Below, one piece after another: positions 2,953 through 7,291 of a DNA stretch of 38,409 nt. Both the position numbers and the translations under genes were made by a program. The notes beneath the pieces were generated by a model that was not told where the DNA came from, did no database searches, and saw only the letters and a program-made list of their open reading frames with translations. Origin of the DNA: Brevundimonas sp. GTDB taxonomy: Bacteria > Pseudomonadota > Alphaproteobacteria > Caulobacterales > Caulobacteraceae. The stretch is taken from contig JADCBH010000330.1 in assembly GCA_020253595.1 (NCBI GenBank), forward strand, positions 1-38,409. The letters run 5' to 3'. Position 1 is the stretch's first letter. Every line of letters starts with the position of its first letter.

Positions 2953-3189
2953 TCAAGATCCGCCAAGGCGGGTGGCACCTGTGATCCGACAGGCATAGTC
3001 GATCTCCGGGCGACCGGATGTCGCGTTGCCGTTGGGTGTCAGAACGCCTCCGCGCGCCCTGCAATCGGCGGTGAGACGGTCCAGCTCTGCCGTGTAGCGG
3101 TTCTGGCCTTCAACGCCCGAAGTCGCACACCCGGCGAGGGTCAGCCCGACAAGCAGGAGCACGGTTGCGGAAACGGTAAATCGGGTCAT
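2953..3189 (-). CDS. small lipoprotein, hypothetical
   Basis: Signal peptide with lipobox LAGC and two further Cys (DCRARGG...YACR). GGGAG upstream fits ATG 3189 better than 3195. Confidence 0.7.
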   Translation of the reverse strand: MTRFTVSATVLLLVGLTLAGCATSGVEGQNRYTAELDRLTADCRARGGVLTPNGNATSGRPEIDYACRITGATRLGGS

Positions 3190-3221
3190 CGGCATTCTCC
3201 CATTGAAGTGGTGGATGAGGG

Positions 3222-3848: not shown

Positions 3849-3918
3849 TGGGCCTCCTCGATCACCTTCAACGATGCGCCGGACGCGATCGTGCCGCAAG
3901 GCGCGCAGGGGACCTGTT

Positions 3919-3969
3919 CATTCACGTTTCGCGGATGGACGCCCCCCGCCATTCACGAAACCGGGACGG
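3919..3969 (+). promoter_or_regulatory. candidate LytTR-type direct-repeat operator upstream of the DUF2141-oxygenase operon
   Basis: CATTCACG at 3919-3926 and 3950-3957. TTCGCGGA (3928) and TTCACGAA (3952) are 24 bp apart. 3928-3941 matches 6795-6808 at 11/14 positions. Confidence 0.4.
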
Positions 3970-4037
3970 TCGCTTCCGCAACTCCGGTGGCGGTCTGCCG
4001 GGCTGTCGGGCCAGGGTCAGGTCATCGGAGGCCGGTG

Positions 4038-4069
4038 GTCGGTCTCCCCTCGCAAATCGGAGACCCGAC
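4038..4069 (+). promoter_or_regulatory. hairpin sequestering the RBS of the first DUF2141 gene
   Basis: GTCGGTCTCC (4038-4047) pairs with GGAGACC-C-GAC (4059-4069), which contains the GGAG RBS directly before ATG 4070. Confidence 0.5.
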
Positions 4070-4483
4070 ATGATCCGCATCACCGCCCTGATCGCCGCCC
4101 TGGCTTTCGCCGCCCCGGCCCTGGCCCAACTCACCAGCGACCTGACCGTAACCTTCGAGACCGGCGCCGACACTGGTGCCCTGATGGTCGCTCTCTATGA
4201 CGCCGCCGGATACAACGGCGGCCAGCCGGTCAGGGCCGTCCGCCTCGACGTTGCCGCTGGCCAGCGGACGGCCTCCTTTGCCGGGCTCCAAGCGGGCGAG
4301 TACGGCATCCGGGCGTTTCACGACCTCAACGGCGACGGCGAGATGAACCGCAATCCGTTCGGCATGCCGACCGAGCCCTACGCCTTCTCCAACAACGCCG
4401 TGGGCAACATGGGTCCGGCAGGCTGGGACCGCGCCCGCTTCACCGTTCAGGGCGCAACGGCCCAGACCATCTCTATCCGCTGA
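4070..4483 (+). CDS. DUF2141-family secreted protein (copy 1)
   Basis: Signal peptide MIRITALIAALAFAAPALA and family signature GEYGIRAFHDLNGDG...FGMPTEPYAFSNN...GP. GGAG RBS. Confidence 0.85.
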   Translation: MIRITALIAALAFAAPALAQLTSDLTVTFETGADTGALMVALYDAAGYNGGQPVRAVRLDVAAGQRTASFAGLQAGEYGIRAFHDLNGDGEMNRNPFGMPTEPYAFSNNAVGNMGPAGWDRARFTVQGATAQTISIR

Positions 4484-4546
4484 ATCCGACGGGCCGTCGC
4501 TTTCGACGCGGCGTCCTTCCCTTTGCGCCTGATCACGAGACCCGCC

Positions 4547-6013
4547 ATGAACGCTTCCCGTCGTCACTTTCTGATGAGCGCCGCCGCCCTGTCGGCGGCG
4601 GTCGCCACGCCTGAAACCGTTTGGGCCGCAATGGCCCAGGAGGCTGCGGCCCCCTGGGCGCTTGCCACCGCCGATCTGGAAGCTGACGTGGCTCCCCGTG
4701 CGATGCGATTGGTGCACGGGCGTGCGCCCGACGGACTGGCCGGGACGCTGTTCCGCAACGGGCCCGGAAAGTTCCGCCGGCCCGGCGGTTCGGCCACCCA
4801 CTGGTTCGACGGCGACGGACTGATGCGGTCGTTCCGCATCGAGGATGGAGCCGTAATGCTGGCGGCCCGATTCGCGGACACCCCGAAACGACGCACAGAG
4901 ACCGAGATCGACGCCGTGGTGACCCCCGGTTTCGGCACGGCTGGCGACGCCCGCGCCCGGATCGGCTCAAACGACGACGCCAATGCGGCGAACACCGCCG
5001 CTATGGTCACGGGGGATAAGGTCTGGGCGCTTTGGGAGGGCGGATCACCATTACAGATGGATGCCGCGACCCTCGCGACCGAGCGGTTCGTCACCTTGCG
5101 CGATGATCTGCGGGGCATGCCCTTCCAGGCCCATCCGAGGCGGGCGCCCGACGGCACCATCTGGAACGTCGGCACCAACGCTGACCAGGCGATCATCTGG
5201 CACATGAACCCGGACGGAAGCCTCATCACGGCCGGGCTGGTGGCCCTGCCCCGCGCCAGCTACCTGCACGACTTCACAGCGACGGAGCGCTCCCTGATCT
5301 TCGTGCTCCAGCCTTGGGTGTTCGCCCAAAGGCGCATGCCCTTCTCGACCCAGTTCGCCTGGCGCCCGGAGCTAGGGACCCAGGTCCTGGTCGTGGACAA
5401 GGCGGATCTGACGAGAACGCGTGTCTTTGAGCTTCCAGCCTTCAGCTTCTTTCACCTCGGCGACGGCTGGGAAGAAGCGGATGGCACAATCCGTTTCGAC
5501 GTGGCGGCCAATCGCGACGCCTCCTTCGCCATTGAGGGTGCCCGCGTCCTGGTGGCCCAACGGGGAGCTGTTCCCGGCGAACCGAGCGTCCTGAAGCTGA
5601 TAACACTCCACGCCGACGGCCGCGCCGAGATGGCCTCTACGGGCGTGACCGCAGAGTTCCCGAAGGGGGATCCGCGTCGTCCGTGTTCGCTGCGCAATCT
5701 GACGGTTCATGTTCACGGCGAACGCGGGGATCGCCCCCTGCCTAACGGCCTGGCGATCCAGAACTGGGCGACCGGCCAGAACCAGGCCTTCCTTTTCGAC
5801 GACACCCAGATCATGGAAGAGGCCGTGTTCGTGCCCAAGCCCGGCCGAACGGACGAGGCCGATGCCTGGTTGGTCGCGCCGTCCATCAATCTCGCCGAAG
5901 GCGTAACGGAACTGCACGTCTTCGATGTCGCGGCGGTCGAAGCGGGCCCGGTTGCGACCTGGCGGGCCGATGTTGCCCTGCCGGCAGGCTTCCACGGGGC
6001 CTGGCGCGGCTAG
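4547..6013 (+). CDS. carotenoid oxygenase (RPE65/ACO/LSD) family non-haem iron dioxygenase with twin-arginine signal peptide
   Basis: Motifs RNGPG and HWFDGDG; four iron-ligand His motifs (AHP, YLHDF, FFHL, GFHG); EAVFVP. The N-terminus MNASRRHFLMSAAAL...VWAAMA is a Tat motif. Confidence 0.9.
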   Translation: MNASRRHFLMSAAALSAAVATPETVWAAMAQEAAAPWALATADLEADVAPRAMRLVHGRAPDGLAGTLFRNGPGKFRRPGGSATHWFDGDGLMRSFRIEDGAVMLAARFADTPKRRTETEIDAVVTPGFGTAGDARARIGSNDDANAANTAAMVTGDKVWALWEGGSPLQMDAATLATERFVTLRDDLRGMPFQAHPRRAPDGTIWNVGTNADQAIIWHMNPDGSLITAGLVALPRASYLHDFTATERSLIFVLQPWVFAQRRMPFSTQFAWRPELGTQVLVVDKADLTRTRVFELPAFSFFHLGDGWEEADGTIRFDVAANRDASFAIEGARVLVAQRGAVPGEPSVLKLITLHADGRAEMASTGVTAEFPKGDPRRPCSLRNLTVHVHGERGDRPLPNGLAIQNWATGQNQAFLFDDTQIMEEAVFVPKPGRTDEADAWLVAPSINLAEGVTELHVFDVAAVEAGPVATWRADVALPAGFHGAWRG

Positions 6014-6019
6014 ACGGCC

Positions 6020-6799
6020 TCAGTACCAGCCGGCGTCGCGCAACGCCCTAGCGTAGCGCCGGCTGACCGGGGCGACGACTCCCCCCTCGAGCGTCAGTGT
6101 CGCGCGACCATCGCCGCGGGCCACATCTCGAACGGCATCCTTGGCCACCCACCAGCTGCGATGGGTCTGGGCCCCTTCCAGCCCTTCCAGCTCGTCCAGC
6201 GCGTCCGACATCCGCATCAGGATCAGATCAGATCCACGGTCGGTGTGGATGCGGAGATAGTGGTCCTCCGCCTGTACGGCGCGAATGGCCGCACCCTTGA
6301 GCTTGGGCGGAAGCCTTGCCGGAAAGCGGGACGCAGGCTGGCCTGCCATGGGGGCGTGGGTCTGGATGGGTTGAGCCCGGTTCAGGAAGACGTTGATAGC
6401 GCTCATCGTGGCGGTCACGGTCACGACCGGACCCAACGACCACGGCAGGGCAGAAATGTCGTATAGTCGGCCTTCGAAGACCGGTCCGGTCGCCGCCCAG
6501 ACCATAAGGGTGACCGGACCGCTGATGGTCGCCGTCAATCCCGCCACAGCCAGCCAGGGCCGCTCGTCAAAATCAATCCAGCGCTCGATCAGCAAAGAGC
6601 ACAAATGCCCCCAACCGGCCCCCACTACCATGATCGGGACCCAGTAGGCGAACCGGAGCCAAAGCGACACTTCACCCGTGTTGAACGCCCCAGTCAGCGC
6701 CAGCACCACGCCAGCCATCGCTGCAATCGCGAGGCCCTTTGGCAAACTCTGTATGGAAGGCCCCCGGGGGCTGCGACCTGGCGACAATGGGGCGTTCAT
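6020..6799 (-). CDS. membrane-anchored LytTR-family DNA-binding regulator
   Basis: About 4 hydrophobic segments followed by the LytTR signature AEDHYLRIHT...LILMRMSDA..EL...G.QTHRSWWVA...VSRRY. No receiver domain. Start uncertain (ATG 6799 chosen). Confidence 0.88.
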   Translation of the reverse strand: MNAPLSPGRSPRGPSIQSLPKGLAIAAMAGVVLALTGAFNTGEVSLWLRFAYWVPIMVVGAGWGHLCSLLIERWIDFDERPWLAVAGLTATISGPVTLMVWAATGPVFEGRLYDISALPWSLGPVVTVTATMSAINVFLNRAQPIQTHAPMAGQPASRFPARLPPKLKGAAIRAVQAEDHYLRIHTDRGSDLILMRMSDALDELEGLEGAQTHRSWWVAKDAVRDVARGDGRATLTLEGGVVAPVSRRYARALRDAGWY

Positions 6800-6867
6800 G
6801 GGTGGACGGGCGGCTCGTGCTGGTGTTTCGCTTTTGCCGGACGGCGCGACACTGAGAGGGCGTTTCG

Positions 6868-7287
6868 ATGAAGTTGGCAATCGTATCGATGAGTCTGGGT
6901 CTGATGATCGCAGCCAGCGGTGCCGAGGCGGCAGATCTGAACTTGACCCTTCGAACGCAGGGCTCCGGGGGCAATCTGGCGATCGCCGTCTATGACAGCG
7001 CGGATGCCCTACGCCAAAGCCGCAATCCGGTGGCGACCCGGACCGTGCCTGCGTCTGGCGGGGCCGTTTCGGTAACTATTCCCGGTCTGGCCCCCGGTCG
7101 CTACGCGGTAGCCGTTTTTCACGACGCTGACAGTAACGGCGAACTGACGCTTTGGCCCGTCGGCCTGCCACGCGAAGCCTATGGCTTTTCGCGCAACGCC
7201 CGAGGTCGTTTTGGCCCTCCGGCCTTCGATGCTGCCGCTTTCGACCTGCCCGTCACGGGTAGCCGGCAAGCCATCACACTGCGCTAG
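6868..7287 (+). CDS. DUF2141-family secreted protein (copy 2)
   Basis: Signal peptide ending in AEA and signature GRYAVAVFHDADSNG...GLPREAYGFSRN...FGPP.FD. Divergent from the LytTR gene. Confidence 0.85.
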   Translation: MKLAIVSMSLGLMIAASGAEAADLNLTLRTQGSGGNLAIAVYDSADALRQSRNPVATRTVPASGGAVSVTIPGLAPGRYAVAVFHDADSNGELTLWPVGLPREAYGFSRNARGRFGPPAFDAAAFDLPVTGSRQAITLR

Positions 7288-7291
7288 ACAT

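Follow-up and report, generated by a model that had tools for sequence, protein, structure and literature searches.

The stretch of DNA analysed here, hereafter the window, comprises 38,409 nucleotides of a Brevundimonas genome that is 82% complete. Between a GST gene on one side and holA-lptE-leuS on the other lie four adjacent genes (Table 1): two encode DUF2141 proteins (D1 and D2), one a dioxygenase of the RPE65/CCO family with a twin-arginine translocation (Tat) signal, 92% identical to its B. bacteroides counterpart, and one a transmembrane (TM) protein fused to a LytTR domain. All four genes had been picked out in a first-pass annotation of the window, and they are present at the places given there, with families supported by Pfam. 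The signal peptides that it assigned to both DUF2141 proteins agree with hydrophobic N-termini ending in Ala-x-Ala, as judged by inspection rather than by a signal-peptide predictor. Its description of a LytTR protein with about four TM segments, devoid of a receiver domain and of a nearby kinase, also holds: a single Pfam family is recognised, hydropathy averaged over 101 family members displays four hydrophobic segments (the profile of the single sequence is weak), and no kinase was found among the scanned window neighbours of the four-gene locus. The four genes do not form a single operon, the LytTR gene being convergent with the enzyme gene and divergent from the D2 gene over 68 bp. The likely LytTR start is the ATG at 6799, where the alignments of relatives begin. 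The LytTR-D2 gap contains no excess of hairpins over shuffled sequences (z +1.24), and the PADLOC anti-phage models recognise no family in any of the four proteins of the locus (0 for 4/4).

Table 1. Coordinates of the features of the window discussed in the text
Feature	Position	Strand	Basis or remark
Palindromic box TTCRCG-N3-CGYSAA, predicted LytTR site	3919..3935	+	Footprint, 85 Brevundimonas upstream regions
Imperfect direct repeat with a period of 22 (3950-3959, 3973-3981), predicted LytTR site	3950..3981	+	Footprint
Putative weak sigma70-type promoter, TGGCGG (3988-3993) and CAGGGT (4012-4017)	3988..4017	+	18-bp spacer here
D1, DUF2141; transthyretin/CnaB-like beta-sandwich, predicted secreted, predicted dioxygenase small subunit	4070..4483	+	Pfam 88 bits, cut-off 24.4
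RPE65/CCO-family non-heme iron dioxygenase with Tat signal	4547..6013	+	Pfam PF03055, 273 bits, cut-off 27
Four-TM LytTR one-component regulator, HigX paralogue	6020..6799	-	LytTR the sole Pfam family, 58.8 bits
D2, DUF2141; optional diverged paralogue, Trp in place of interface Asn95, outside the D1 motif	6868..7287	+	Pfam 96 bits, cut-off 24.4
Small predicted lipoprotein without Pfam family	2953-3195	-	Precedes the module in several close relatives
Origin-region-like housekeeping genes ftsY, ccm, parAB, gidAB, mnmE, rho, hemH, hemE, dnaQ, secB	14800-38400		Translations inspected

DUF2141, the Tat-signal RPE65-family dioxygenase and the four-TM LytTR protein constitute a conserved module, the reality of which is hardly in doubt. 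Its conservation was assessed in loci from GTDB genomes, the best 80 of 177 of which form a close set that is nearly all Brevundimonas and hence non-independent. Among the close loci with enough flank (75 for DUF2141, 78 for LytTR), a DUF2141 gene lies directly upstream of the enzyme gene in 75/75 and a LytTR gene within 1.5 kb of it in 75/78. The DUF2141-enzyme pair recurs in 28/28 distant loci from other families or classes or representing second copies (one of them, L029, belongs to the close set as well), in 19/20 further Caulobacteraceae loci, and in 9/9 loci from the family of genome G208, Ralstonia and Variovorax. The co-location of the three families in other genomes, for which the first-pass annotation had suggested a search, is thus widespread and extends across alpha-, beta- and gammaproteobacteria, the LytTR gene being mostly upstream and divergent outside Brevundimonas. 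By contrast, neither DUF2141 nor LytTR was found within 1.5 kb of outgroup CCO genes (0/11), and in a quick tree, from which L139 and L160 were left out, the linked enzymes form a clade of their own (SH-aLRT 99). The enzyme itself is present in 32/36 Brevundimonas genomes, in 49/151 Caulobacteraceae and, at E<1e-60, in 15/350 Pseudomonadota. The two partners also seem to be lost together: DUF2141 is missing from all four Brevundimonas genomes that have no intact enzyme and present in 11/11 of those with the enzyme. No DUF2141-enzyme fusion was recovered from 7,994 scored longer candidates, among which there were two hits, and this absence is weak evidence.

Two further candidates for membership fell away. 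D2, initially taken as a core member, is present in only 26/75 loci of the close set. Genes for TetR, a TonB receptor and an MFS protein are neighbours in most Brevundimonas loci (68, 65 and 62, respectively) and were not counted as members, since they lie on another contig here and are absent from most distant loci. Several variants of the locus were noted. Some Caulobacteraceae genomes (G013, G015 and G653) carry the complete module a second time, in a distantly related form (about 35% identity; L097, L098 and L257) that was possibly acquired horizontally. Broken copies were seen as well: of the enzyme, L108 (G020) retains a remnant of the C-terminal part, and L109 (G034) has a split enzyme gene without LytTR. 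The DUF2141-enzyme pair is also found on Ralstonia megaplasmids (117/119 plasmid records hit) and in Variovorax, without an adjacent sensor and without either promoter motif (L265-L267); one record of R. solanacearum has the pair close to a gene annotated as a type III effector.

The enzyme begins with MNASRRHFL, in which SRRHFL, in keeping with the S/T-R-R-x-F-L motif of Tat substrates, precedes a hydrophobic stretch. R5 and R6 are invariant in 54/54 orthologues of the enzyme alignment (27-92% identity), the starts of which were picked by an RR rule satisfied in 116/120 loci. The first-pass designation of a twin-arginine dioxygenase is therefore kept, even though the Pfam TAT_signal score is below its cut-off (16.3 bits against 22.7), and the enzyme is predicted to be exported to the periplasm via Tat. 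No export signal was seen in the outgroup CCOs inspected. The iron ligands H196, H241, H303 and H483 and the second-shell residues E164 and E425 are invariant in the 54 orthologues, and E370 is conserved in 53/54. The model is a seven-bladed CCO propeller (pLDDT 91) whose best Foldseek match is ACO (TM-score 0.82), W163-E164 and T150 corresponding to ACO W149-E150 and T136; matches in the ESM Atlas are confined to RPE65 clusters. The enzyme would cleave the C=C bond of a lipophilic polyene or alkene.

Which polyene or alkene this might be was approached through the known members of the family. The best PDB and NCBIfam scores of the enzyme are those of NOV1/LSD, orthologues exist in plant-associated Ralstonia, and detoxification of stilbenes or lignin aromatics by a lignostilbene dioxygenase is the role guessed for Xanthomonas XCV0111/XCV0112 in the accessible part of PMC3071791. 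The scores nevertheless fall far under the cut-offs of the stilbene-cleaving families (NF053778, 141.6 against 800; NF053780, 81.7 against 650). Moreover, the Tyr/Lys pair described as essential for phenolic substrates of aromatic dioxygenases in the accessible parts of PMC12308385 and PMC6097328 is absent: the position of NOV1 K134 is occupied by W163 in 53/54 orthologues, and a Tyr is present at 128-129 in 0/54. Stilbenes, which had been named among the possible substrates, are for this reason very improbable. The score for the 8'-apo-carotenoid 13,14-dioxygenase family is also below its cut-off (NF052295, 116 against 675). A second possibility is that the enzyme serves turnover of the cell's own carotenoids or apocarotenoid signalling, the circuit originally put forward for this locus. 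The ACO-like active-site residues and the presence of crtY (lycopene cyclase) in the same genome are in line with such a role, as is the location of DUF2141 next to crtG in Sphingomonadales, mentioned in the accessible parts of PMC5989583 and PMC9241875. However, crtY, the sole carotenoid marker family used, was found in 16/68 genomes, all 16 being among the 64 with the enzyme, and most of the 48 enzyme genomes without crtY are near-complete. Most carriers thus appear not to make cyclic carotenoids, and the genes that recur next to the module include no recognised crt gene. An endogenous carotenoid circuit is consequently improbable.

The enzyme also appears to depart from ACO at the mouth of the substrate tunnel. 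Residues 135-142 align with ACO W121-L128, which I take to be part of a nonpolar patch; they are polar, with 0-2 bulky hydrophobic residues, in all 54 orthologues, and another ACO segment is shortened by seven residues in the enzyme. The ACO-type hydrophobic surface patch at the tunnel entrance therefore appears to be missing, a judgement based on alignment alone and not on the model surface. Through a nonpolar patch beside its tunnel, ACO is proposed to draw substrate from membranes, according to the accessible parts of PMC13734108 and PMC5133782.

Structure prediction points to D1 as the partner that occupies this region. D1 is modelled as a transthyretin/CnaB-like sandwich, the closest solved structure giving Z 8.8 and a root-mean-square deviation of 2.6 over 89 residues. 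Modelling DUF2141 with the oxygenase, as the first-pass annotation had recommended, yielded a D1-enzyme complex with an ipSAE of 0.75 (runs 0.73, 0.80 and 0.75), the best of three controls giving 0.00; the ipSAE mark used is reached by 116/157 solved pairs and 2/215 mismatched pairs. Contacts agreed by 100% between runs, pLDDT of the partner was at least 89, and a memorised template is excluded because there is no close solved DUF2141 structure. The predicted contacts join D1 93-101 and 111-117 to enzyme 135-144 and 186-192, that is, to the region of the missing patch, and the predicted docking loop of D1 is N95-P-F-G-M-P. The D1 interface is more conserved than the rest of the protein (0.74 versus 0.60), and the top contact, N95, is found in 86/89 enzyme-adjacent DUF2141 proteins (three were unparsed), as against a Trp in 25/29 non-adjacent copies. 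On the strength of this model, D1 is probably a bound small subunit of the dioxygenase. The two DUF2141 partners once envisaged for the enzyme are reduced to one, D2 not being core. Alternatively, DUF2141 might, instead of presenting substrate as a subunit, help only transiently, in folding, stabilisation or metal loading, which would leave the remaining model unchanged. The fold of D1 is a generic beta-sandwich, with pilotins and accessory domains among the closest structures at middling Z; D1 carries a Dx[DN]xDG-like motif at 85-90, and DUF2141 genes do occur beside unrelated envelope genes. Yet the predicted contact falls on the substrate-entry patch region, and the Sec-type signal of D1, as opposed to the Tat signal of the enzyme, suggests that the two meet only after the enzyme has folded, so that a helper role is quite unlikely.

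D2 is a dispensable side addition, 34% identical to D1 over 118 residues. Since Trp is found at the Asn95 position in non-adjacent copies, D2 probably has another partner, perhaps the product of the DUF2306 gene that often comes next after it. An upstream motif common to the D1 and D2 units had been reported and is absent: the longest shared word, of 8 nt, is reached by 147/300 shuffles, and the D1 promoter matrix recognises 0/26 D2 upstream regions (P=0.24 for the window D2). At five loci (L038, L048, L053, L063 and L069) D2 is missing and DUF2306 is kept, the gap resembling on inspection the start of D2, which suggests repeated D2 decay. At L207, L213, L199, L239 and L240 and on contig C89 of the same genome (L008), DUF2141 is again accompanied by DUF2306 and TM-LytTR, the dioxygenase being present in some cases and missing in others. 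A repeat pair precedes DUF2306 in 11/16 Brevundimonas upstream regions, so DUF2306 may join the regulon. Other DUF2141 genes lie directly downstream of a serine palmitoyltransferase gene or in a lipid-kinase/lptFG locus (L208, L210 and L211, in G041, G053 and G045; L214, in G368), the serine palmitoyltransferase family NF047599 scoring above cut-off in L208 and L211, and the serine palmitoyltransferase-linked protein is a candidate bacterial sphingolipid-handling factor. DUF2141 is unmentioned in the Caulobacter sphingolipid papers searched for 'DUF', nor did the accessible texts bear out the suggestion that CC_1161, a sphingolipid gene of Caulobacter, encodes a DUF2141 protein. A DUF2141 domain forms part of LptZ, according to the accessible part of bioRxiv 2026.10.02.756314.

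Transcription of the DUF2141-enzyme pair is probably controlled by the adjacent LytTR protein, as the pattern of motifs upstream of D1 suggests. A footprint of 85 Brevundimonas upstream regions comprises a palindrome, a direct repeat with a period of 22, and two blocks that resemble a weak -35/-10 pair and are separated by 17 bp in 63/85 regions, a spacing pattern chosen after the footprint had been seen; a sigma70 consensus scan gave 0 promoter sites. A palindrome matrix trained on Brevundimonas alone (significance, P at most 0.05 in 100 Markov resamples) was significant in 17/19 distant and 7/7 later-fetched LytTR-linked loci, in 9/10 later and 2/4 earlier loci without an adjacent regulator, in 1/4 kinase-linked loci (P=0.05) and in 0/2 TetR-linked loci; the test covered 18 of the 20 later Caulobacteraceae loci. 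In a gammaproteobacterial subclade a HisKA_3 kinase and a LuxR-type regulator stand in place of LytTR (confirmed by Pfam in L164-L166 and five more loci, and by inspection in L143). Where this kinase replaces LytTR, RTGACYTYYRGCA replaces the D1 motif, in 4/4 kinase-linked versus 0/19 LytTR-linked loci, the data on which the pattern was chosen, and it is present in 5/6 loci fetched after that choice. The LytTR-type repeat expected ahead of the DUF2141-enzyme genes is thus found, and it covaries with the regulator. Upstream of the LytTR gene itself, the palindrome was not significant (P=0.42), and the D1 matrices were negative or weak across 6700-6900. A genome-wide regulon was also considered and dropped: the full D1 matrix, built without the window, has a single site in the 82%-complete genome, and its 12-bp core, with 638 hits, is unspecific. 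Two further LytTR-related sites were observed in this genome. At L003 (G000:C143:678-801) a TTCACGAA/TTGGCGAA repeat pair lies between a HigX-like paralogue and a divergent secreted hydrolase, a candidate direct target, and is unlike the HigX motif obtained by chromatin immunoprecipitation (ChIP); at L004 (G000:C71:159-413) there is a further LytTR match with an internal TAG stop.

Taken together, these data suggest the following mechanism, to which I assign a probability of about one half. Tat would carry the iron dioxygenase to the periplasm, where D1, as bound small subunit, would contact residues 135-144 and 186-192 of the enzyme through its N95-P-F-G-M-P loop. Since the docking segment is the counterpart of the ACO hydrophobic patch, D1 would stand in for this patch and may present or gate the substrate. 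The TM bundle of the LytTR protein would sense the compound or its membrane effect, and the protein would activate the weak promoter from the repeats just upstream of the -35 block. The enzyme-D1 pair would then cleave a lipophilic polyene or alkene, likely from outside the cell, for detoxification or scavenging. An exported enzyme, an inducible promoter and a patchy distribution fit the removal or use of an outside compound, and the substrate is most likely a lipophilic polyene.

Several observations weigh against this scheme. The complex prediction was run on alignments made for this analysis, close cousins of true partners also pass such a prediction, and conservation on the enzyme side of the interface does not exceed the average (0.58 versus 0.61). 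DUF2141 occurs elsewhere in the genome in 8/11 non-Brevundimonas genomes lacking an orthologue of the enzyme, and is consequently not a dedicated subunit family. As to regulation, only 8/20 of the further Caulobacteraceae loci have an adjacent LytTR gene, the simple direct-repeat pattern precedes only 7/19 DUF2141 genes in the later set, the swap to a kinase represents one evolutionary event, three betaproteobacterial loci have neither motif, and the HigX ChIP motif, as given in the accessible part of PMC13384398, differs from the D1 motif.

The main rival explanation is envelope lipid remodelling, in which the sensor would monitor the membrane's physical state, the exported pair cleaving an unsaturated lipid of the cell's own envelope. 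A membrane HisKA_3 kinase, paired with a LuxR-type regulator, serves as the alternative sensor, and the two presumably resemble DesK/DesR. Fatty-acid-hydroxylase genes follow the enzyme gene in L162 and L168, PEMT/ICMT genes do so in L268 and L270, and the lipid-linked DUF2141 copies and LptZ, mentioned above, point in the same direction, as does the tie of HigX to envelope maintenance in the accessible part of PMC13384398. These lipid-enzyme neighbours are sporadic, however, and the sphingolipid-linked DUF2141 proteins are other paralogues. The patchy presence of the enzyme in Caulobacteraceae and the second distant copies (L097, L098) are rather those of accessory catabolic genes, and cleavage of an isolated double bond in a lipid is not known for any RPE65-family enzyme. 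Lipid remodelling is thus unlikely, and cleavage of a lipophilic compound from outside the cell is preferred. A further extension, more tentative than the mechanism itself, is that the module typifies a first class of two-subunit periplasmic enzymes of the carotenoid oxygenase family: in place of the membrane patch, DUF2141 would serve as a detachable lipid-presenting module, and three unrelated kinds of intramembrane sensor would have been recruited to induce the pair against a polyene active on membranes or an unsaturated lipid of the envelope. This would imply a new substrate class and the first function for DUF2141.

The proposed scheme gives DUF2141 a testable first function, with a named partner and interface residues, and gives the little understood membrane LytTR proteins of alphaproteobacteria a target promoter and a motif. 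It also delineates a clade of dioxygenases, predicted to cleave alkenes, that may be soluble and exported; for biocatalysis, a polyene-cleaving enzyme in soluble form would be useful. If the enzyme needs its partner, expression of the enzyme alone would explain negative assays. In the accessible part of a review (PMC5133782), one of two carotenoid cleavage dioxygenases (CCDs) is inactive in each of Sphingopyxis and Plesiocystis, enzymes that may or may not belong to the linked clade.

The module is real, conserved and, as a unit, apparently undescribed, and its families are known. The literature searched, which lay mostly outside subscription journals and bioRxiv supplements, yielded no description of a bacterial CCO that is exported, of DUF2141 as a subunit or of such a regulatory unit. 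The first-pass statement that no description of such a system was known accordingly holds for the unit and fails for the membrane LytTR architecture, which is that of HigX. Synechocystis ACO (PDB 2BIW, 4OU9) shares with the enzyme the seven-bladed propeller, the 4-His/3-Glu centre and the W-E-G-G and N-T motifs; it differs in being about 23% identical, single-chain and without a Tat signal, and its hydrophobic W121-L128 has a polar equivalent that is predicted to bind DUF2141. NOV1, LsdA, LSD4 and MapADO belong to the same family and give the best sequence scores, and these stilbene oxygenases differ by the Tyr/Lys phenol clamp that the enzyme lacks and by cut-offs that it falls far below. Lancelet BCOLg is, in the accessible part of PMC13734108, likewise a CCD that is exported and whose nonpolar patch is reduced, digestion of exogenous carotenoids being its proposed role; it is an animal, glycosylated protein of the secretory pathway, described there with neither a partner subunit nor a one-component sensor. 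Adjacent genes for a 'lignostilbene dioxygenase' and a COG4704 protein, XCV0111 and XCV0112, stand in a table of Xanthomonas (PMC3071791, accessible part), where the role is guessed from annotation and export, partnership and regulation are unmentioned. The comparison with these genes was by description only, and COG4704 is presumably DUF2141.

The regulatory half of the module has two counterparts. The LytTR Regulatory Systems (LRS) HdrRM and BrsRM also combine a LytTR activator, direct repeats upstream of -35 and membrane control, and the accessible part of PMC6193735 gives as a rule repeats of 9 bp, separated by 11-13 bp and placed immediately ahead of -35, a spacing found at the D1 promoter with its period of 22. 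An LRS consists of two proteins, a separate membrane partner encoded downstream of the regulator being inhibitory, and is autoregulated; by contrast, the TM domain of the window protein is fused, and the autoregulatory repeats have no counterpart upstream of its gene. The second is HigX of Caulobacter crescentus, which, as described in the accessible part of PMC13384398, is likewise a four-TM bundle fused to LytTR, without a receiver and conserved beside one enzyme gene, a layout that the window protein shares. HigX adjoins a COG4188 hydrolase, the window LytTR the dioxygenase and D2. The hydrolase-linked HigX counterpart in the present genome is the paralogue at L003 (C143), which aligns only over the C-terminal 109 residues, with 45% identity.

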